Assembly (NCBI GenBank): GCA_027068415.1
Contig: JAMOTD010000017.1
Location: 3,074 to 67,073, forward strand
Direction of reading: 5' to 3'
DNA from: Desulfurobacteriaceae bacterium
GTDB taxonomy: Bacteria > Aquificota > Aquificia > Desulfurobacteriales > Desulfurobacteriaceae
Length of the DNA: 64,000 bases
Below the pieces are notes generated by a model that worked only from the letters and a program-made list of their open reading frames with translations, was not told where the DNA came from and made no database searches. The position numbers and the translations under genes were made by a program. How positions within the stretch are numbered: position 1 is the first letter of the stretch; each line of letters begins with the position of its first letter. Shown here in pieces: positions 10,285 through 18,332 of the stretch.

Positions 10285-10547
10285 GCAAATTTGGTGGTTG
10301 ACATTCAGGAGTTTTCAGAGGTGGAAGTTGCTCAGAGAGAGAACCAGAGGTTTGACGTAGCCTCTCTCCTTTCAATTCAATGAGGACCGTTGCCGAGGTG
10401 GTTGAAAGGAGCGAGCAGGTTCCGATTTTAAGGAGGGTTGGGTGTAATGAAGGGCAGGGATTTCTCTTCTCCCCGCCCGTAGAGTTTGAGAAGTTAGCGG
10501 AGCTCCTAAAGAGGGGCTACTTAAAGCCTAAAGGGTTAAGTGATTGA
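10285..10547 (+). pseudogene. 3' remnant of an EAL-domain (c-di-GMP phosphodiesterase) gene, frameshifted and 5'-truncated
   Basis: Read by hand: ...VVDIQEFSEV...NQRFDVASLLSIQ (frame of ORF 10198..10383), then a frame change to MRTVAEVVERSEQVPILRRVGCNEGQGFLFSPPVEFEKLAELL. This is the AEGVE...lGc..~QGy.fs.P end of EAL domains. No upstream EAL sequence is present. Confidence 0.5.
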
Positions 10548-11075
10548 GGAGAGCTCCCTTACAATCTCCTCAACGTCCTCCTTTCTTACCTCCTTCCTCG
10601 TTGCAAAGTCTTCAACCCTTCCCGAGAGCCAGAAGAGGTACTGAGCCTCCTTAAAGTTCTTCCTTACTTTGCCCCTCATGACAGGCCTAAAGTACCCTAT
10701 TGGCCTGCTCCACAGGGTTACGTCCTCTGAGCCACACTTCTCGCAGGCCGTTTTCCTCCCCACCATCTTGTGGCCGCAGGAGTTGCACGTTGTAAGGAAG
10801 GGGGTTTTTGTTAGGTACTGAATGGGGAAGTTCTTGATTATTGAGAAGATTAACCTCTCCTGCTCCTCCGGCTTCATCTCCTCTGCAGTAAAGAGGTGCA
10901 TTATGCTTCCGCCGGTTGCGTAGCTCTGGAAGTGGGAGTTGACGTCAATCTGTTTCAGAAGGTCTCCCTCCTGGAAGGGAGCCTGAAAGCCCGAGGTAAG
11001 GAATACCCTTCCGGTGCTCGGGTCTCCTCCGACGAAGATTTTTGCCTTTACCTTTTTCTCACTAACGGCTTTCAT
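10536..11075 (-). CDS. nrdD: Anaerobic ribonucleoside-triphosphate reductase, C-terminal piece (Zn ribbon plus glycyl-radical domain)
   Basis: YATGGSIMHLF, CNSCGH...CEKCGS zinc ribbon, and glycyl-radical-like SRPIGYFRPV. Likely start is ATG 11075 (MKAVSEKK) preceded by GGAGGT, overlapping the stop of the upstream piece. Confidence 0.8.
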   Translation of the reverse strand: MKAVSEKKVKAKIFVGGDPSTGRVFLTSGFQAPFQEGDLLKQIDVNSHFQSYATGGSIMHLFTAEEMKPEEQERLIFSIIKNFPIQYLTKTPFLTTCNSCGHKMVGRKTACEKCGSEDVTLWSRPIGYFRPVMRGKVRKNFKEAQYLFWLSGRVEDFATRKEVRKEDVEEIVRELSSIT

Positions 11076-14000
11076 CTTTAACCTCCACCCTCTCAAAGAG
11101 GTTCTCTCCAAACTTGGTTATCGCTTCCTTAATAAATAGGTTTAGGTACGGGTCTTTTGAGATTTCGGGCTTCCTTTGGCCGTTTAAGACCTCCGCAAGG
11201 GCGTTTGCAAAGGCAATATCCTTCTCTGCCATTCTGCAGGCAGCGTTTTCACTGGGAGCGTACTCAAGGGAGTAGAGGACTTTATCCCTCTCCATAAACT
11301 GGTGGAGCTTCTTGTAGAGGTACTGGGCAATCCGGTGGGCGTACTCCTTGGCCTCGTCGTTAAAGAGGCCATCCTTAAAGCCGGCGTTTACCATTCCCTC
11401 GTGGACTCCTACCACCGAGAAGATGTTAAAGAGTGAGCGGTCGTCCTTCTGGTAGAAGGAGAGGTAGGGGAAGAGGTCTTTCCAGTGTTTCCTGAGCCAC
11501 TCTCTCTTCCTCTGGAGAGCTTTTGCCCCTATCTCCATAGTGTAGTCAATCATTCTCTTTAGGAATTCAAAGTCGTCTTTGGCCAAGAAGAGGAGCCTGT
11601 TGAGGTTGATTGCGTAAACGCCGATTCCCCCGACTCCGCTGCCCGAGTGGAAGGGGTTTGAGCCGGTTACCGCCTCAACCTGAGAGATGTCAAAGAGCAT
11701 TCGGCAGTTAAAGCTCACAATGCCGTTGGCCAAGATGAATGTCTCGTTGTCCTCAACCTCTATGTCAAGGTAGGTTTTCGGCTCTTTCAGTGTTCTCTCC
11801 TCAACAGATTCTACCTTGATAATTTCAACGTCCCACTCCCGGTAGTCTTTAATGGCTCCGCTATCTAACCGGTACTTCCTGATAAATTCCTCGGATACCG
11901 TAGGAGTTTTTATGTAGCTCCTGTTTCCTGAAGGGGTAACTACCGACTTTTCTCTGATAAGCGTAGAGGGAACCAGGCTGTAGCAGGAAGACTTTGTAGG
12001 TTTGGATAGTTTAAGGGTCTGAGAGTTCTCCCTTACCCTGAGTGTGTGTCTTATTCCGTGGGCCCACAGCAGGGATGAGAGCTCTCTTATTAAGGACTCG
12101 TCGTTTACGTGGAGCTCCGTATGCCCGCCTCTGGTGTAGCCGTCTCCGTCAATAAATCCCTTTAAGAAGGATTCTACAACCGACTTGGGAGAGCTCTTTA
12201 AGGCCGGCGGAATCTCAGCGTACTTAACTACCCCGTTTTTGAGGAGGAACTCTCCGAGTGCCCTTCCGTATATCCAGAGCTGGACGGAGCTCTCCTTACC
12301 CTGCCACTTTTCGGTGTAGTAGTTTGTTGAGGAAATTTTGTCCCCGAAGTACTTAAGGGCTATCTCCCCGGCCTTTTTGAGCTTATCCCTCTCCTTTAAG
12401 CCGGCTGTTAAGACTATTCCGTTAACCTTTTCCCTGTTTCGGGAGTCCTTTATAAAACACCCTTCGGCGTAGAAGTACCCGAAAAACCAGGCAATCTCTT
12501 CGTTTAACGGAGTTCCGTCTGAAAGTTTTTCGTAGTTCTCGGCCTCGGAGAGAGCTCTCTTAATGCTCAAACCAAAGTCTCCCGGCCTTACTTCGCAGGC
12601 CGGTTTCCAAGTGATTCTCTTCTCCTCGGGGGAGAATACGGCCACCCTGTGGCTCGGGTCGCAGGTCATCTCAAAGCCGTTTCTGAATTTAATCTTTACT
12701 TCCTTCTTTGAGCTGATTTGTAGGAGTTTGGTTATTTTCTTCTTCTCAATCTTTCCCGTTTTCGGGTTGATGGAGGGAACAGAAAGGCCTTTAACTTCCC
12801 ACCACTTCTCCGAGCTCCCCTGCGAAATGACTCTGCCTGTAAACTTTTCCTTAATTTCCCGAAGAGTTATCCAGTCGGGGAGCTCCTTTCCTTCGGTATA
12901 AACAAATAGCTTCGTTTCGGGGTCTAAGCAGCAGTTAGAGTAAATCATTCCCTCGTCAAAGGGCTTTATGAAGGGGTTTTTCTCCTTGTACTTTGAGGGC
13001 TTTGTGAAGGGCTCTTTAAGGTAGTTCTGAACGTAGAAGCCCCCGAAGTACTCGCTCTCTTTAAGTAAGAGTTTCCAGGCAGGGTTATTCCTGTCAAAGT
13101 CCTCTGTAATGTTTACCGTAATCAGGGGGAAGGTGAAGGGGTTTCCGTCGGCGTCTCCCCGCCTCATTGCCTTTATAAAGGCGGTATTAATCCTGTCAAA
13201 GTAGTGGGGAGGGATTTTCTCGTAGGTTATGTCAAGGAATTTTCCTGCATAAACGACCGGCTCGTACCTCAGGCGGCTGTTGGGCTTTCCGAAGTCAAGG
13301 GTGATGTTTGAGAAGGGGGAGTTCCCGCTTCTGAAAGGTAAGTTGATGTTGTAGAGGAACTCCTGCCAGAGGTTCTCAAGCTCGTAGTCCGAGTAGCTCT
13401 TCCTCCCCTCCTTTTCAAGGTAGTAGAGGTAGCCTGCCGCAACTGTTGAGAGGTCGTTTAGGGAAGTTGCCCCGGAAACCTCCTGAGCAATGAGGCAAAT
13501 CAGGTTTGCACACTGCATAAAGAGGGTTTCAAGCCTCTTGGGAGGAGCCGCCCTCCTTTCGTTCTTTGCGTTGCTCTGAAGCCCATAGAAGGCAATGTCT
13601 TTAGCCGAAAGACCTATGCAGTTGTGAACCCAAAGGTTGTGGAGAACGAAGGTGTGGGATTCGGTGGTAATGTCGTATACAAACTCGTACTCAGAGAGCG
13701 TCAGCTCGTTTTCGATTCTCCTTACCGATTGGACGCTGACCCAGTCGTTTACTCTGTAGAACTCGTTGTCTCCTATTCCTCTTTCCCTCTTCCACTCTAC
13801 TGCCCTTTTGAACTTTTCGCTGGGGAGCGTCTCATAACCCTGTTTGTAGGTGAACATTACGCCGTAAAGAGGGCGCCTTTGGGTAATTCCGTACTTGTTG
13901 GTAGTGTTTTTGCACTCTTCAAACCTCATTGCGGGCGGGTAGCCGAGAATCTGGAAGATGTAGGAGAGCTGGTAAGTCAGCTTGGGGGAGGAGAGCCTGA

Positions 14001-15102
14001 GGGAAATTTGGCCGTGGGCGTTGAGGGTTCCATCCCCGTCAAGTAGGCCTGCAACGATTCCCTTTAAGAACTCTTTTGAGTACCTGAGAATTCGGGGGGA
14101 GAGGCTCTTTTGGGGAGCTCTCCCGTAGGATACAAAGTTTTTTAGAAAGGCTATGAAAGCCCTGTTCGGAACTGAGAGGGCGTAGCCATTCTCGGCTTTT
14201 CCGATTGAGGAGTAGACGCCGCACTCCTTAAAGAGGATTTTCTGGAGCTTTTCTAAGGTTTTTTTCTCTTTCTGGACTATTGAGATTGAGGAGGGGATTC
14301 CGCCGGAAGTTTTTACGTAGCCTTCGGCGAGGAAGAAACCGATAAAGTAGCCGAGCTCCTCTGAGAGCTTTACCCTCCTCTTCATTCCGTTAAGGTTTGA
14401 GTTTTCTGAAGGCTTTAGGATTACGAAGTCTTCGGTAATCAGGAGGCCCTCTTCCTCAATGAGCTCTGCCGCGTCAACCTCTTCTACTTTAAATAGGTAG
14501 TCTTTTAAGAAGGGGGCAACTTCAACCCTAAACTGTTTGTCCTCAAAAGGAAGGAGCTCTTGGGCGGGCTTTGCATCTCTATCCTTATCCTCTCCCACTA
14601 TACAGGGATGGTCGGCCGTTACCTCAACCATCTCCCCCATTCGGGTTTTAACCACTACGATGTCCTTCTCCCTTCTCTTCTTTGTAATCCTCAAAAGCCT
14701 CGTCCAGCCCTTCCTGTCAAGTACGAAAATTTCCCTATTTGAAAGCTCCTTCTGGTAAACCTCCTTCTCCTCGTCAACTAAAATTTCCTCTTCCGGCAGG
14801 CTCTCGTAGAGCTCCTCAAAGGAGAGGAGCTTGACCTCGTCTCCCTCCCTGACTATTAGCTGGTTAACCGGTGAGTAGGAGTAGGCGCTGAGGCGGTAGG
14901 TTTGATGGTGGTAGGCCCAGCCCTCCTCGTGGTGGATTCTGACCGGGAGGCCCTTGTAGATAACGTCAAAGAGGTAGTCTTTCATAACTTCGCCTACTAC
15001 AACGTGCTCAAGGACGGGAACTCCCCGGACGAAGTTTGCGTTGTTCCTTGAGATGTCGTCGTTGTCTATGAAGAGTTCTATCAGCTTGAAGTACTTGTTC
15101 AT
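11062..15102 (-). CDS. nrdD: Anaerobic ribonucleoside-triphosphate reductase, N-terminal piece, interrupted by two inteins
   Basis: The extein reads ...RIHHEEGWAYHHQTYRLSAY|CIGLSAKDIAFYGL...AAPPKRLETLF...IAQEVSGA...YSNC|CRMLFD...EYAPSENAACRMAEKD. Likely start is ATG 15102 (MNKYFKL), in an ATGA overlap with the nrdG stop. Confidence 0.85.
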   Translation of the reverse strand: MNKYFKLIELFIDNDDISRNNANFVRGVPVLEHVVVGEVMKDYLFDVIYKGLPVRIHHEEGWAYHHQTYRLSAYSYSPVNQLIVREGDEVKLLSFEELYESLPEEEILVDEEKEVYQKELSNREIFVLDRKGWTRLLRITKKRREKDIVVVKTRMGEMVEVTADHPCIVGEDKDRDAKPAQELLPFEDKQFRVEVAPFLKDYLFKVEEVDAAELIEEEGLLITEDFVILKPSENSNLNGMKRRVKLSEELGYFIGFFLAEGYVKTSGGIPSSISIVQKEKKTLEKLQKILFKECGVYSSIGKAENGYALSVPNRAFIAFLKNFVSYGRAPQKSLSPRILRYSKEFLKGIVAGLLDGDGTLNAHGQISLRLSSPKLTYQLSYIFQILGYPPAMRFEECKNTTNKYGITQRRPLYGVMFTYKQGYETLPSEKFKRAVEWKRERGIGDNEFYRVNDWVSVQSVRRIENELTLSEYEFVYDITTESHTFVLHNLWVHNCIGLSAKDIAFYGLQSNAKNERRAAPPKRLETLFMQCANLICLIAQEVSGATSLNDLSTVAAGYLYYLEKEGRKSYSDYELENLWQEFLYNINLPFRSGNSPFSNITLDFGKPNSRLRYEPVVYAGKFLDITYEKIPPHYFDRINTAFIKAMRRGDADGNPFTFPLITVNITEDFDRNNPAWKLLLKESEYFGGFYVQNYLKEPFTKPSKYKEKNPFIKPFDEGMIYSNCCLDPETKLFVYTEGKELPDWITLREIKEKFTGRVISQGSSEKWWEVKGLSVPSINPKTGKIEKKKITKLLQISSKKEVKIKFRNGFEMTCDPSHRVAVFSPEEKRITWKPACEVRPGDFGLSIKRALSEAENYEKLSDGTPLNEEIAWFFGYFYAEGCFIKDSRNREKVNGIVLTAGLKERDKLKKAGEIALKYFGDKISSTNYYTEKWQGKESSVQLWIYGRALGEFLLKNGVVKYAEIPPALKSSPKSVVESFLKGFIDGDGYTRGGHTELHVNDESLIRELSSLLWAHGIRHTLRVRENSQTLKLSKPTKSSCYSLVPSTLIREKSVVTPSGNRSYIKTPTVSEEFIRKYRLDSGAIKDYREWDVEIIKVESVEERTLKEPKTYLDIEVEDNETFILANGIVSFNCRMLFDISQVEAVTGSNPFHSGSGVGGIGVYAINLNRLLFLAKDDFEFLKRMIDYTMEIGAKALQRKREWLRKHWKDLFPYLSFYQKDDRSLFNIFSVVGVHEGMVNAGFKDGLFNDEAKEYAHRIAQYLYKKLHQFMERDKVLYSLEYAPSENAACRMAEKDIAFANALAEVLNGQRKPEISKDPYLNLFIKEAITKFGENLFERVEVKDESR
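11707..12930 (-). mobile_element. Intein 2 of NrdD (408 aa) with LAGLIDADG homing-endonuclease domain
   Basis: Starts CLDPETKLFVYTEG and ends ILANGIVSFN followed by +1 Cys. LAGLIDADG motifs IAWFFGYFYAEGCF and FLKGFIDGDGYT. Removing it restores NCCRM(L), which matches my recollection of the NrdD NCCRL segment. Confidence 0.8.
13621..14880 (-). mobile_element. Intein 1 of NrdD (420 aa) with LAGLIDADG homing-endonuclease domain, Ser at position 1
   Basis: Starts SYSPVNQLIVREG (block A spacing as in VMA-type inteins). Has a TxxH block (VTADHP). LAGLIDADG motifs LGYFIGFFLAEGYV and FLKGIVAGLLDGDGTL. Ends FVLHNLWVHN followed by +1 Cys. Confidence 0.75.
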
Positions 15103-15755
15103 TCCTCCTCCACGGGGTAAAACGGGTTTACCTGGTGTGGAAGAGATTTTAGACACTCCCTGATGAGTGCGATTTCCTCCTCTTTCAGAAGGGGGTACTT
15201 AACGGTTCGGAGGATTGTGTAGGGCAGGGAATATCTCTTTATCACCTCTATTGTTATTTTTACTCTTTTGGAATAGTTATAAACTGCTGAAGGGTCTAAA
15301 CTTTTGTTTGAAAATAGAATTCTCCTAAAGCGTTCAAGCTGGTCGGGGGTGTACTCATCAAGGAGGGGAATTTTTACGTCAAGGGCTACTCCGTCTATTA
15401 ATCCATTTTCGGCCAGTTTTTCAACCCTTTCGGGGAGGGTTCCGTTTGTATCAACCCTTACTGGAAAGCCCTCCTCCTTTATCAGTTTGAGCCCTTCCTC
15501 CAGCCTCTCCTCTAAGGTGGGTTCTCCTCCCGAAACGATTATCAGCTCAACTCCTAAGAGCTTAAGCATTTGGAGTTTTTCCCTCAGCTCTTCCTCTTTA
15601 AAGAACTCCTCCTTTCCCCTGAAGGCGTGGCGGTTATGACACTGATAGCAGTTGAGGTTGCACTGGTGGATTTTTGTATAAAGGAGTGCTGAGAAAACTC
15701 CCGGGTGGTCGTTAAAAGTGGTGGGAATCTCAACTTTCAGGAAGGGGGTCTCCAT
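15099..15755 (-). CDS. nrdG: Anaerobic RNR activating protein (radical SAM)
   Basis: CNLNCYQCHN CxxxCxxC cluster motif, SGGEPTL, and position directly upstream of nrdD with an ATGA overlap. Confidence 0.85.
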   Translation of the reverse strand: METPFLKVEIPTTFNDHPGVFSALLYTKIHQCNLNCYQCHNRHAFRGKEEFFKEEELREKLQMLKLLGVELIIVSGGEPTLEERLEEGLKLIKEEGFPVRVDTNGTLPERVEKLAENGLIDGVALDVKIPLLDEYTPDQLERFRRILFSNKSLDPSAVYNYSKRVKITIEVIKRYSLPYTILRTVKYPLLKEEEIALIRECLKSLPHQVNPFYPVEEE

Positions 15756-15796: not shown

Positions 15797-15822
15797 TAAA
15801 AGAGGGGAGACCCGAAGGCCTC
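15797..15822 (-). terminator. Candidate intrinsic terminator downstream of metE
   Basis: On the minus strand, GAGGCC-TTCG-GGTCTC hairpin followed by CCCTCTTTT. Confidence 0.4.
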
Positions 15823-15843
15823 CGTCGGGGTTGGGTCGGTTCT

Positions 15844-18003
15844 TTATTGTTCTTCTTTCCTGAGTTTTCGGGCAAGTCTTACCAGGTTCCTTAAGGCGGG
15901 GATTACCTCTTCCCAGCGCCTCGTCTTCAAACCGCAGTCGGGGTTAACCCAGAACTTCTCTTTTGGAATTACCCTGAGAGCTCTCTCAACAATCTCGGCC
16001 ATCTCCTCAACCGAGGGGACGTAAGGGGTGTGAATGTCCCAGACTCCCAGACCTATCTGCCTGTCAAAGTTAACCTTTTCAAAGGCTTCAATTATGTCCC
16101 CCTTGGAGCGGGTGGCCTCAATTGAGATAACGTCAAAATCCATCTGGAGTATGTACTCCATAATCTCGCCGAACTCGGAGTAGCACATGTGGGTGTGGAT
16201 TTGGGTTTCGGGCTTTACACAGCTGTGGCAGAGCCTGAAGGCCTTTACCGCCCAGTCAAAGTACTCGTCCCACTCCCTCTTCTTTAGGGGGGCCTTCTCC
16301 CTTATCGCCGGCTCGTCTATCTGGACGATTTTTATCCCCTCCTTCTCGTAGTCGGCAATTTCATCTTTCAGGGCAAGGGCAATCTGGTATGCAACTTCCC
16401 TTATAGGAATGTCTTCCCTTACAAAGCTCCAGGCTATTATCGTTGTGGGTCCGGTCAGCATTCCCTTTACGGGCTTCTCTGTAAGGCTCTGGGCAAAGGC
16501 AATCTCCTTAACCGTCATTTGGCCGTCCCTTTCAACGTCTCCGTAGATAATCGGAGGCCTGTAGCACCTTGTTCCGTAGGAGATTACCCAGCCGTTTCCG
16601 GTTGTTGCTATTCCCTTCATCTTCTCTGCAAAGAACTCAACCATGTCGCTGCGCTCAAACTCCCCGTGAACGAGAACGTCAAGGCCGAGCTCCTTCTGAA
16701 TCTCTATCGCCTTTGCTATCTCGCCCCTTATGAATGTCTCGTAGTCCTCCTGAGAGAGCTTCCCTTTCTTGTAGAAGAGCCTAACTCTTCTAACCTCTTC
16801 CGTCTGGGGGAAGGAGCCGATTGTCGTTGTTGGGAAAAGGGGAAGGTTTAAGACCTCTTTCTGAATCTTTTCCCTCTCGGGGTAGGCCGGTCTCCTTACG
16901 AAGTCCTCCTCCTTTAAGGAGGCCACCCTTTCCCTTACCCTTTTAATCTCTCCGAAGGAGCTCTCAAGCCCTTCTACCCACTCTTTCGCCCTCTCCTCTT
17001 TGCCCTGTAGGAGCTCTGCCAAAAGGCTCAGCTCCTCCAACTTCTCCTGTGCAAAGGCAACCTTCTTTAAGAGTTCCTGGGGCAGAGTAGCTCCGGAGAG
17101 GCTTACGGGAAGGTGGAAGAGGGGAGCGGCGTTGGTTATTACGGTTTTAAACCTGCCTGAGAGCTCTTTTAGAACTCGGGCGGTTTTAAAGAGGTCGTTT
17201 CTCCAGACGTTCCTTCCGTCAACAACCCCCGCAAAGAGGGTTTTGTCGCTCTCAATCTCCTTTAACTGTTTAAGGTTCCCCCCTCCGTCGTGGATGAGGT
17301 CAACTCCGACTCCGCTTACCGGGAGCTCAAAAACTTCACTCAGCCTGTCCACTCCCGCGTAGTAGGTAAAGAGGTTTATCGGGATTTCCGCTTTTGAGAG
17401 CTCCCGGTAGACCTCCTTTAAAACCTCCCACTCCTTGTCTGAGAGCTCTAATGCCAGTGCCGGCTCGTCAATGTGGAGGCTCTTAAACTCCATCTCCTTT
17501 GCAAACTGAACCGTTAGGCGGGCAACCTCCAGTACCCTCTCCTTAAACTCCTCTTCCTTAACCTCTTTAGAGAGCTTTACGAAGGTGAAGGGGCCGATTA
17601 GGTAGGCGTTTTCCTCTCCCTTTTTCCACTTGGGGTAGGGGAGGTTTGAGAGGGAGAGCTCTTTTCCGGAAAAGTCGGGAACGAGGTAGTGGTAGTTGGT
17701 GTTAAACCACTTCTTCATCTGGAGGGCGTTTTTGCCCCTGCAGAGCTCAAAGTAGTCGGGGAGGCTTTCGGCCCTGTAGAGGCCGAAGAGGACTGCCTGG
17801 TCAACCATGTGGTCGTAGAGGGTCATCTCTGAACTCGGGTGGCCGCCGACTCTGGCGTAGGCCTCCTCCCTCTTTTTGTTGAGCTCCTCAATTCCCTTAA
17901 GGAGCTCCCCTTCTGTCAGCTTTCCCGACCAGTAGCCCTCTACCAGTCTCTTAAACTCCCTGTTCTTCCCGAGCCTCGGGAAGCCGTAAGCGTAGGTTTT
18001 CAT
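15844..18003 (-). CDS. metE: Cobalamin-independent methionine synthase
   Basis: MKTYAYGFPRLGKNREFK N-terminus and two Meth_synt halves (TTTIGSFPQT, HTHMCYS, NPDCGLKTR). ATG 18003 is preceded by GGAGGT. The longer listed ORF extension runs through the leader RNA. Confidence 0.9.
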   Translation of the reverse strand: MKTYAYGFPRLGKNREFKRLVEGYWSGKLTEGELLKGIEELNKKREEAYARVGGHPSSEMTLYDHMVDQAVLFGLYRAESLPDYFELCRGKNALQMKKWFNTNYHYLVPDFSGKELSLSNLPYPKWKKGEENAYLIGPFTFVKLSKEVKEEEFKERVLEVARLTVQFAKEMEFKSLHIDEPALALELSDKEWEVLKEVYRELSKAEIPINLFTYYAGVDRLSEVFELPVSGVGVDLIHDGGGNLKQLKEIESDKTLFAGVVDGRNVWRNDLFKTARVLKELSGRFKTVITNAAPLFHLPVSLSGATLPQELLKKVAFAQEKLEELSLLAELLQGKEERAKEWVEGLESSFGEIKRVRERVASLKEEDFVRRPAYPEREKIQKEVLNLPLFPTTTIGSFPQTEEVRRVRLFYKKGKLSQEDYETFIRGEIAKAIEIQKELGLDVLVHGEFERSDMVEFFAEKMKGIATTGNGWVISYGTRCYRPPIIYGDVERDGQMTVKEIAFAQSLTEKPVKGMLTGPTTIIAWSFVREDIPIREVAYQIALALKDEIADYEKEGIKIVQIDEPAIREKAPLKKREWDEYFDWAVKAFRLCHSCVKPETQIHTHMCYSEFGEIMEYILQMDFDVISIEATRSKGDIIEAFEKVNFDRQIGLGVWDIHTPYVPSVEEMAEIVERALRVIPKEKFWVNPDCGLKTRRWEEVIPALRNLVRLARKLRKEEQ

Positions 18004-18169
18004 GGGTTTACCTCCTGCGGCGTTTTTGTTTAAACGCCTGCAGGCGGTTCTTGAGGCGGGAAAAAGAGGAGGCAAAAAAGACAAAAGTAGCCCCTTCTCC
18101 TTTCCCGCGTCCCGAACCCCCGCAGGACGCGAAGGGGCAGGCTTTCGCCCGCCCATCTCGGGCCGGTCT

Positions 18170-18332
18170 CCCGGCTCGCAGGCTTCTTTTGTGCCGTAAA
18201 CCTTCCCGGAGCGGTGGCTCTTAACCTCTCCGCTCCAGTGGTTTACAGCCTTTTTAATGCCTGCTCACGGTTGCGAGGACAGCGCCGGACTTTCACCGGA
18301 CTTCCCGTTCACCCGAGACGGGGCAATTTTAG
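18170..18332 (-). promoter_or_regulatory. Cobalamin (B12) riboswitch in the metE leader
   Basis: The minus strand reads ...GGGTGAACGGGAAGTCCGGTGAAAGTCCGGCGCTGTCCTCGCAACCGTGAGC...GAGCCACCGCTCCGGGAAGG. This covers the conserved core and a B12-box-like GCCAC(C)G element, upstream of a B12-independent methionine synthase. Confidence 0.8.

Follow-up and report, generated by a model that had tools for sequence, protein, structure and literature searches.

The anaerobic (class III) ribonucleotide reductase (RNR) NrdD of a Desulfurobacteriaceae bacterium appears to be made as two separate polypeptides. We analyzed a 64,000-nucleotide (nt) stretch of contig JAMOTD010000017.1 (assembly GCA_027068415.1), referred to here as the window and numbered from its first base, in which nrdD occupies two overlapping open reading frames (ORFs) on the minus strand. 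Judging from the sequence and from structure modeling, we would put the probability at roughly 0.8 that these ORFs encode a translationally coupled, two-polypeptide enzyme. The original prediction, made from the letters of this DNA without database searches, had proposed an NrdD in two pieces with a TAG at 11064..11062, an ATG at 11075 preceded by GGAGGT, and a 14-nt overlap, all of which proved exact to the base. It had likewise assigned the radical-bearing domain to a separate ORF of ~179 amino acids (aa), which does contain the zinc ribbon, the RPIGYFRPV motif, and the predicted last barrel strands. The two genes and their junction comprise the following features:

11062..15102, minus strand: nrdD large piece, a precursor with two inteins and a spliced product of 518 aa, predicted to contain barrel strands A-H, the beta-A Cys, and the NCCR finger loop
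11081..11086, minus strand: Shine-Dalgarno (SD) sequence GGAGGT of the small piece, within VEV codons of the large ORF, read directly
11062..11075, minus strand: overlap ATGAAAGCCGTTAG of 14 nt, containing the small-ORF start and the large-ORF stop
10536..11075, minus strand: nrdD small piece, with the IFV/VFLTSGF hairpin, two predicted barrel strands, zinc ribbon, glycyl-radical loop, and C-terminal helices
10734..10787, minus strand: Cys4 zinc ribbon (small-piece residues C97, C100, C111, and C114, which do not vary in alignment A1)
10680..10706, minus strand: glycyl-radical motif RPIGYFRPV, with Gly127 at 10697..10695, invariant in 21 sequences

The large ORF is open from a GTG at 15156 to its TAG (1364 aa counted from the GTG), and its true start is most likely the ATG at 15102 (MNKYFKLIELF...) rather than this GTG, because intein-free orthologues, such as that of locus L003, begin with MKKNKYFKLIELF. 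Its C-terminal tail was read directly as ...EYAPSENAACRMAEKD...KFGENLFERVEVKDESR followed by the stop, while the small ORF runs from ATG 11075..11073 (MKAVSEKKVKAKIFVGGDPSTGRVFLTSGF...) to 10536 and specifies a 179-aa protein of ~20 kDa. The GGAGGT (11086..11081) lies 5 nt ahead of the small-ORF ATG, and the small ORF is read one base ahead of the large-ORF frame (frame difference 1). The Pfam NRDD profile (PF13597) matches both ORFs, the small one at positions 437-547 of 562, and the 581-position TIGR02487 profile is divided between them, the spliced large piece accounting for positions 2-443 and the small piece for 455-565. Since this coverage is complementary, the two pieces represent complementary halves of one NrdD. 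Together they exhibit homology over the catalytic core, the finger-loop cysteines (NCCRM is restored once intein 2 is removed, and the CCR residues are invariant in alignment A2), the Cys4 ribbon, and the RxxGY motif (RPIGYFRPV of the small piece aligns to RIVGY of Thermotoga maritima NrdD), with nrdG adjacent. All of these are shared with the canonical NrdD enzymes of T4, E. coli, T. maritima, P. copri, and S. thermophilus, as are the family and the predicted fold. The arrangement also has the hallmarks of a split RNR, as there are two ORFs with their own start signals, both conserved among relatives.

The operon order is nrdG, nrdD-large, nrdD-small, and two further features define its upstream end:

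15099..15755, minus strand: nrdG, the radical S-adenosylmethionine (SAM) activase and first operon gene (218 aa; Pfam Radical_SAM and Fer4_12)
15806..15823, minus strand: terminator-like hairpin between metE and nrdG, marking the upstream operon boundary

The best NCBIfam match of nrdG is TIGR02495 (NrdG2, E 2e-31), and the gene is also adjacent in all relatives examined, both in genome loci and in IMG/VR contigs carrying both nrdD pieces. Its stop overlaps the nrdD-large ATG as ATGA, and no promoter-like or terminator-like site was found on the minus strand between 10200 and 11300, an interval that spans the nrdD junction. Overlapping gene boundaries are the usual signature of translational coupling; thus, we infer coupling from the fact that both boundaries in this operon (nrdG/large and large/small) overlap.

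The split layout is common to a family of hydrothermal-vent bacteria and to contigs classified as viral. With the 179-aa ORF as query, we retrieved 46 protein clusters at identities down to 47%, all of them stand-alone and 167-180 aa long where complete (a few calls are truncated). Cultured carriers include Desulfurobacterium thermolithotrophum, D. pacificum, Phorcysia thermohydrogeniphila, and Thermovibrio guaymasensis, and the exact small protein of the window is present on 5 contigs with NCBI, JGI, Logan, and ENA as listed sources. The small gene was located in 14 genome loci, nine from metagenome-assembled genomes (MAGs) labelled Desulfurobacteriaceae, Desulfurobacterium, or Thermovibrio and five from 'uncultured bacterium' MAGs. 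The junction is visible in 11 of the 14, where the large gene ends directly before the small one at a common break point; in L012, just the last ~40 residues of the large gene are present at the contig end, followed by a short spacer. Loci L015/L016 encode nrdG, a 517-aa large piece, and a 173-aa small piece (51% identical) with a 4-nt ATGA overlap, while L017/L018 have the order large, nrdG, small in a virus- or mobile element-like region, their small piece being 61% identical. In L023/L024 and L022, the order is small, unknown gene, nrdG, large in a phage-like context, and seven IMG/VR viral contigs contain both pieces in the order nrdG-large-small or large-nrdG-small. The break point is identical in the 11 genome loci, in one more distant genome, and in the 7 IMG/VR contigs, the pieces being adjacent. 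Because it recurs in every related locus with adjacent pieces, the arrangement is far beyond chance. Bacteria and virus-classified contigs thus show that one and the same surface insert can be broken, whatever the gene order. Thus, the question of the original prediction, whether orthologues have the same split, can be answered in the affirmative, start codon and ribosome-binding site included.

The junctions themselves vary in form. In most, the genes overlap and the SD is encoded by the VEV codons of the large ORF, but L009 has two in-frame stops ahead of the ATG, L003 has a 61-nt spacer, and L012 has the short spacer mentioned above; both of these spacers include their own SD and stops in all three frames. 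GTGGAGGT and the ATG are conserved in relatives, each of which has an ATG with an SD at the proper spacing. For the relatives with an estimable rate of synonymous substitution (dS), the small ORF exhibited a nonsynonymous rate (dN) of 0.10-0.16 and saturated dS, giving dN/dS ≤0.09, which indicates that it is under strong purifying selection. The view, put forward from the window sequence, that the overlap looks like coupling rather than decay is supported by the comparison with relatives.

As the only match obtained with the fused protein in a PDB sequence search, T. maritima NrdD (E about 5e-16), left the junction region unaligned, the break was mapped using unsplit relatives and an AlphaFold2 (AF2) model. 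A profile search of 1.84 billion representative proteins identified the nearest unsplit NrdDs as P0047, P0049, P0051, P0053, and P0062 (654-668 aa), all of which are continuous across the break. These have an EYAPSE...A(R/E)KD helix, then a variable linker of 7-31 aa, then IFVxG...VFLTSGF; in the window the linker is expanded to a 51-aa large-piece tail and a 12-aa small-piece head. This places the cut within a variable, lineage-specific insert at the surface, after the 'APSE...A(E/R)KD' helix and before the 'IFVxG..VFLTSGF' hairpin, and a chain break at that position should leave the fold intact. The AF2 model of an artificial fusion of the spliced large piece and the small piece (697 aa) yielded a predicted local distance difference test (pLDDT) score of 80 and a predicted template modeling (pTM) score of 0.85. 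Its sole long low-confidence stretch, residues 510-529, is the junction (the large piece ends at 518), and the large-piece tail holds a confidently predicted helix at 490-507. After the break, the model places a hairpin at 534-543 and strands at 576-581 (SIMHLF) and 605-610 (IQYLTK), with the zinc ribbon, the glycine loop (Gly645, which is small-piece Gly127), and two C-terminal helices further downstream. Foldseek matched the fusion model to the class III RNR structures 8P2S (P. copri), 4COJ (T. maritima), 9DAU (S. thermophilus), and 1H79 (T4) with a probability of 1.0 and template modeling (TM) scores of 0.6-0.7, at a sequence identity of only 13-17%, and the predicted barrel fold of the fusion is like that of solved NrdDs. 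The model suggests a ten-stranded barrel in which eight strands would be provided by the large chain and the last two strands, together with the glycyl-radical domain, by the small chain.

In the mechanism that we propose, the large precursor would excise its two inteins by protein splicing to yield the 518-aa chain, while ribosomes ending the large ORF would re-initiate at the ATG 14 nt before its stop, aided by the GGAGGT in the VEV codons. Such re-initiation would result in roughly equal amounts of the 179-aa piece, and the two chains would then assemble non-covalently, with the small chain bringing the last two barrel strands, the zinc ribbon, and a glycine loop reaching the finger-loop cysteines. 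NrdG would abstract hydrogen from Gly127 of the small chain, and, following the pattern of other NrdDs, the radical thus installed would move on to the finger-loop cysteine. This loop is of the double-cysteine 'CCR' type without methionine and matches the T. maritima-type NrdD subgroup; the loop type has been linked to the T. maritima lineage and possibly to thioredoxin-type reduction (PMC9669993). That the CCR loop points to thioredoxin-type reduction here as well is offered as a lead only.

Several points weigh against a two-chain enzyme. The support for it comes from sequence and models, purifying selection on the small ORF being the only indirect sign that both chains might be made and assembled, and a T. 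ammonificans proteome of 780 proteins includes class I and class II RNR but no NrdD (PMC5441870 supplement). This family therefore probably has other RNRs besides NrdD. The TIGR02495 match of nrdG scored 108.8 bits, which is below the 131 cut-off, and neither nrdD piece alone reaches the curated NCBIfam NrdD cut-offs. The structure model describes an artificial fusion and was built from an alignment of only 6 sequences, and the assignment of strands to the barrel derives from the order of DSSP elements rather than from superposition.

The alternative that survives best would make the small piece an exchangeable radical cartridge that is activated separately and renews an oxygen-damaged part, although we regard this as unlikely. 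Oxygen cleaves a glycyl-radical chain, and in such a scheme only the 20 kDa subunit would be replaced, with no need to remake the large, twice-spliced precursor; NrdG might act before docking, and a virus or mobile element could bring its own copy. Consistent with this, the small gene stands alone in a phage-like region of L013, L019, and L020 with no large piece within ±10 kb, L025 has a small piece with nrdG and no large piece nearby, and gene order is free among relatives. YfiD/GrcA acts in this manner for pyruvate formate-lyase (PFL), and spare parts have been speculated for other glycyl-radical enzymes (PMC8683613). However, the pieces of the window and of most relatives occur as 1:1, translationally coupled genes, as would be expected of a subunit that is obligate and stoichiometric. 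Exchange would also require partial unfolding, since the small piece is predicted to include two barrel strands, and the large piece may simply sit elsewhere on the L013-type and L025 contigs. If the small chain were exchangeable, it would constitute a functional innovation and not merely a tolerated break.

Programmed +1 ribosomal frameshifting within the 14-nt overlap, which would create a single full-length NrdD, is very improbable. The frames are one base apart, and the SD-like GGAGGT upstream superficially resembles the prfB site. The SD spacing of the prfB frameshift site is ~3 nt, whereas here 14 nt separate the SD from the last sense codon and no slippery codon was seen. Furthermore, the L009, L003, and L012 junctions are unfusable by any frameshift, the pieces of L017 and L023 are separated by nrdG or other genes or come in reversed order, and the ATG with its SD at the right spacing is kept in every relative. 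With an independent ATG and SD conserved and several junctions non-fusable, we rejected classification as a programmed frameshift gene.

Less probable still is a sequencing or assembly indel or a strain-specific pseudogene, i.e. a gene that is really one ORF or is decaying: a single missing or extra base would give such a frame change between two overlapping frames, but the exact small protein occurs on 5 contigs from the four sources named above, the split is present in cultured isolates and in every related locus with adjacent pieces, at several junctions the pieces are kept apart by another gene or by a spacer that has stops in all frames, and dN/dS ≤0.09 contradicts a pseudogene. In combination, the homologues, loci, and selection exclude an indel, a strain-specific pseudogene, and any need for frameshifting, and the 1-2 nt indel that had been named as a possible undoing of the split is countered by several relatives whose junctions could be fused by neither a 1-2 nt indel nor a frameshift. 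A split intein at the junction, with the pieces ligated by protein trans-splicing, is just as hard to credit, for although two cis-inteins mark this gene as an intein hot spot and fractured genes with split inteins are known (PMC2677866), the Pfam intein matches are restricted to the two cis-inteins, the ~12 residues ahead of the small-piece core have no HN plus Cys/Ser/Thr junction, and the large tail lacks a Cys or Ser as the first residue after the extein and forms an ordinary high-pLDDT predicted helix; a split-intein fractured gene was accordingly rejected, with no intein halves at the junction.

Among the closest known systems is the class II RNR of P. aeruginosa, a cellular enzyme whose catalytic protein, like the two-chain NrdD proposed here, derives from two consecutive genes. 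These encode NrdJa and NrdJb, the latter a small C-terminal piece needed for turnover, and this split is conserved in a group of related bacteria; NrdJb functions in dithiol exchange, however, whereas the small NrdD piece would carry the radical itself (PMC4520616). The NrdJa/b split was termed unique for a free-living organism in 2015. In the class I enzyme of phage Aeh1, the split chains NrdA-a and NrdA-b reassemble and the tails at the break are essential, so the earlier comparison with Aeh1 is apt as an analogy (PMC3045599). Tails occur at the break here too, but the Aeh1 pieces are separated by the mobE homing endonuclease gene, which has no counterpart in any locus here, and the Aeh1 split concerns a class I enzyme of a single phage rather than a class III enzyme of a bacterial family and viral contigs. 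Relative to canonical NrdD, the predicted cut separates the first eight barrel strands from the final two, with an extra ~50-aa large-piece tail and ~12-aa small-piece head.

YfiD/GrcA and T4 Y06I are autonomous glycyl-radical spare parts for PFL (PMC8683613). Like YfiD/GrcA, the small NrdD piece is a small separate protein with a glycyl-radical loop that is predicted to dock in a large barrel and to be activated by its cognate radical-SAM enzyme. GrcA, however, is a second copy of a part already present in PFL and comes into play only after damage, whereas the large NrdD piece is without that part; the small piece would therefore be obligatory and would add two barrel strands and a zinc ribbon. 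Because the large piece extends only to profile position 443 of 581, short of this region, there is no duplicated glycyl-radical domain, and a GrcA-type spare part was rejected. To our knowledge, a separate glycyl-radical protein is otherwise known only as this PFL spare part.

Fragmented nrdD genes have also been described in phages, namely the T4 I-TevII intron and the group I introns or fragments of Aeromonas phage phiAS4 and Lactococcus phage 949 (PMC3653736). Those cases involve RNA-level intron splicing or unknown functionality in single phages; here, in contrast, there is no intron-sized gap and each piece has its own translation signals. PHROG phrog_29160, a 158-position profile, weakly matches the small piece, and a search of phage GenBank entries with the small piece returned no annotated split, only distant full-length NrdD genes (for example, a 656-aa ORF of Clostridium phage FA67). 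Full-text phrase searches and the RNR and glycyl-radical enzyme reviews to 2026 yielded no paper on a two-chain cellular NrdD, and public databases label the 177-180 aa proteins simply as 'anaerobic ribonucleoside-triphosphate reductase'. Since neither piece passes the curated NrdD cut-offs, surveys of RNR distribution may miscount these organisms.

A two-chain NrdD would add class III to the naturally split RNRs, after class I (Aeh1) and class II (NrdJa/b). Glycyl-radical enzymes bury the radical glycine in the barrel, yet the activase must reach it, and how the radical domain exits and re-enters is an open mechanistic question for these enzymes. If the 20 kDa radical domain is indeed separate, it would offer a ready-made test of activation on the free domain versus the complex, and the two-chain enzyme would serve as a test system for domain docking and for the swapping of damaged domains.

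As for the origin of the break, the original prediction had suggested that it may be a scar of past mobile-element activity. Nothing directly supports this idea, since neither an endonuclease gene nor a remnant of one was found between the pieces in any locus examined, and a homing endonuclease-type split (Aeh1 mobE) was rejected for the same reason. The pieces in Desulfurobacteriaceae overlap or are at most 61 nt apart, and elsewhere the intervening genes are nrdG or encode proteins free of endonuclease domains. Proteins between or beside the pieces produced only sub-threshold noise and no endonuclease domain when compared with Pfam (L023, L022, L025, L017, and L013) and with PHROGs (L023, L022, L025, and L013). 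In a neighbor-joining tree of fused sequences, a crude distance analysis of 10 taxa, the window, L003, L017, and L015 form one split clade with 100% support, while L023, which is split with its small piece first, pairs with unsplit P0049 (94.5% bootstrap). Because L023 groups with an unsplit protein, the tree suggests that a single permissive loop was either cut twice independently or re-fused once.

A number of the loci are of interest in their own right. The lone small piece of L013 (7995-8513; also L019 and L020, 10001-10519) is a 172-aa protein 73% identical to that of the window, with no large piece or nrdG within ±10 kb; its neighbors encode DNA methylases, SNase, VRR-NUC, a sigma-70-like factor, SNF2 helicases, and many ORFans. 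L013 2464-4338 (minus strand) also encodes a 624-aa N6/N4 DNA methyltransferase that appears to carry an intein-like insertion, ...IIWCLEENTMMF...NGIWTHNCKPN..., spotted by eye in the translation. L025 (GCA_054027755.1, 6001-7810) has a cellular-looking context and encodes a 188-aa small piece, a 104-aa protein with only weak, sub-threshold Pfam matches of zinc-ribbon type, and nrdG; the large piece was not found in the 11.7 kb available. L023 (4960-8709), L024, and L022 (777-3632) are phage-like contigs with RecA, a DEAD helicase, and a baseplate-V match, and the unknown gene between their small piece and nrdG has a product of 163-307 aa. The large-nrdG-small variant of L017 (2839-5134 and 9897-11384) occurs on contigs of 45-170 kb, together with a resolvase with a Cas12f/TnpB-like gene, a type IB topoisomerase, and ThyX, PTPS, and NUDIX genes; from this gene content it looks like an unusual viral or mobile element. 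The large-piece match of the IMG/VR locus L028 (160-2676) is divided into two blocks ~720 nt apart that overlap in the residues they cover (1-320 and 212-497), a pattern suggestive of either internal duplication or insertion at a non-standard site.

The two inteins noted from the original sequence reading were recovered by Pfam in the large ORF, each with a LAGLIDADG endonuclease domain, and their boundaries were set against the intein-free L003 orthologue:

13621..14880, minus strand: intein 1, 420 aa, with Ser first, HN last, and a +1 Cys; LAGLIDADG_3 match
11707..12930, minus strand: intein 2, 408 aa, with Cys first, FN last, and a +1 Cys; Intein_splicing and Hom_end matches

Intein 1 interrupts RLSAY|CIGLSAK, directly ahead of an invariant Cys, and intein 2 interrupts NC|CRM, between the two finger-loop cysteines. 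Both sites are thus at conserved cysteines, and intein 1 opens with Ser instead of Cys. The close relatives L001-L014 differ in intein content, with a large piece of 515-539 aa where there is none, ~930 aa with one intein (at the finger-loop site), and ~1350 aa with both.

Two observations concern the flanks of the operon. On the plus strand, a 55-aa ORF (10380..10547) lies between nrdD-small and a YkuD-type L,D-transpeptidase gene, convergent with the small-ORF 3' end and overlapping it by 12 nt. Its similarity to the EAL domain profile is confined to the final 33 positions (E 1e-6), and on this evidence it looks like a relic of a cyclic di-GMP phosphodiesterase gene. On the other side, a cobalamin riboswitch (18144..18331, minus strand; 92 bits) lies upstream of metE (about 18156..15844, minus strand), which encodes a cobalamin-independent methionine synthase. 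The listed metE start overlaps the riboswitch, and therefore the real start is probably further downstream (MKTYAYGFPRLG...).

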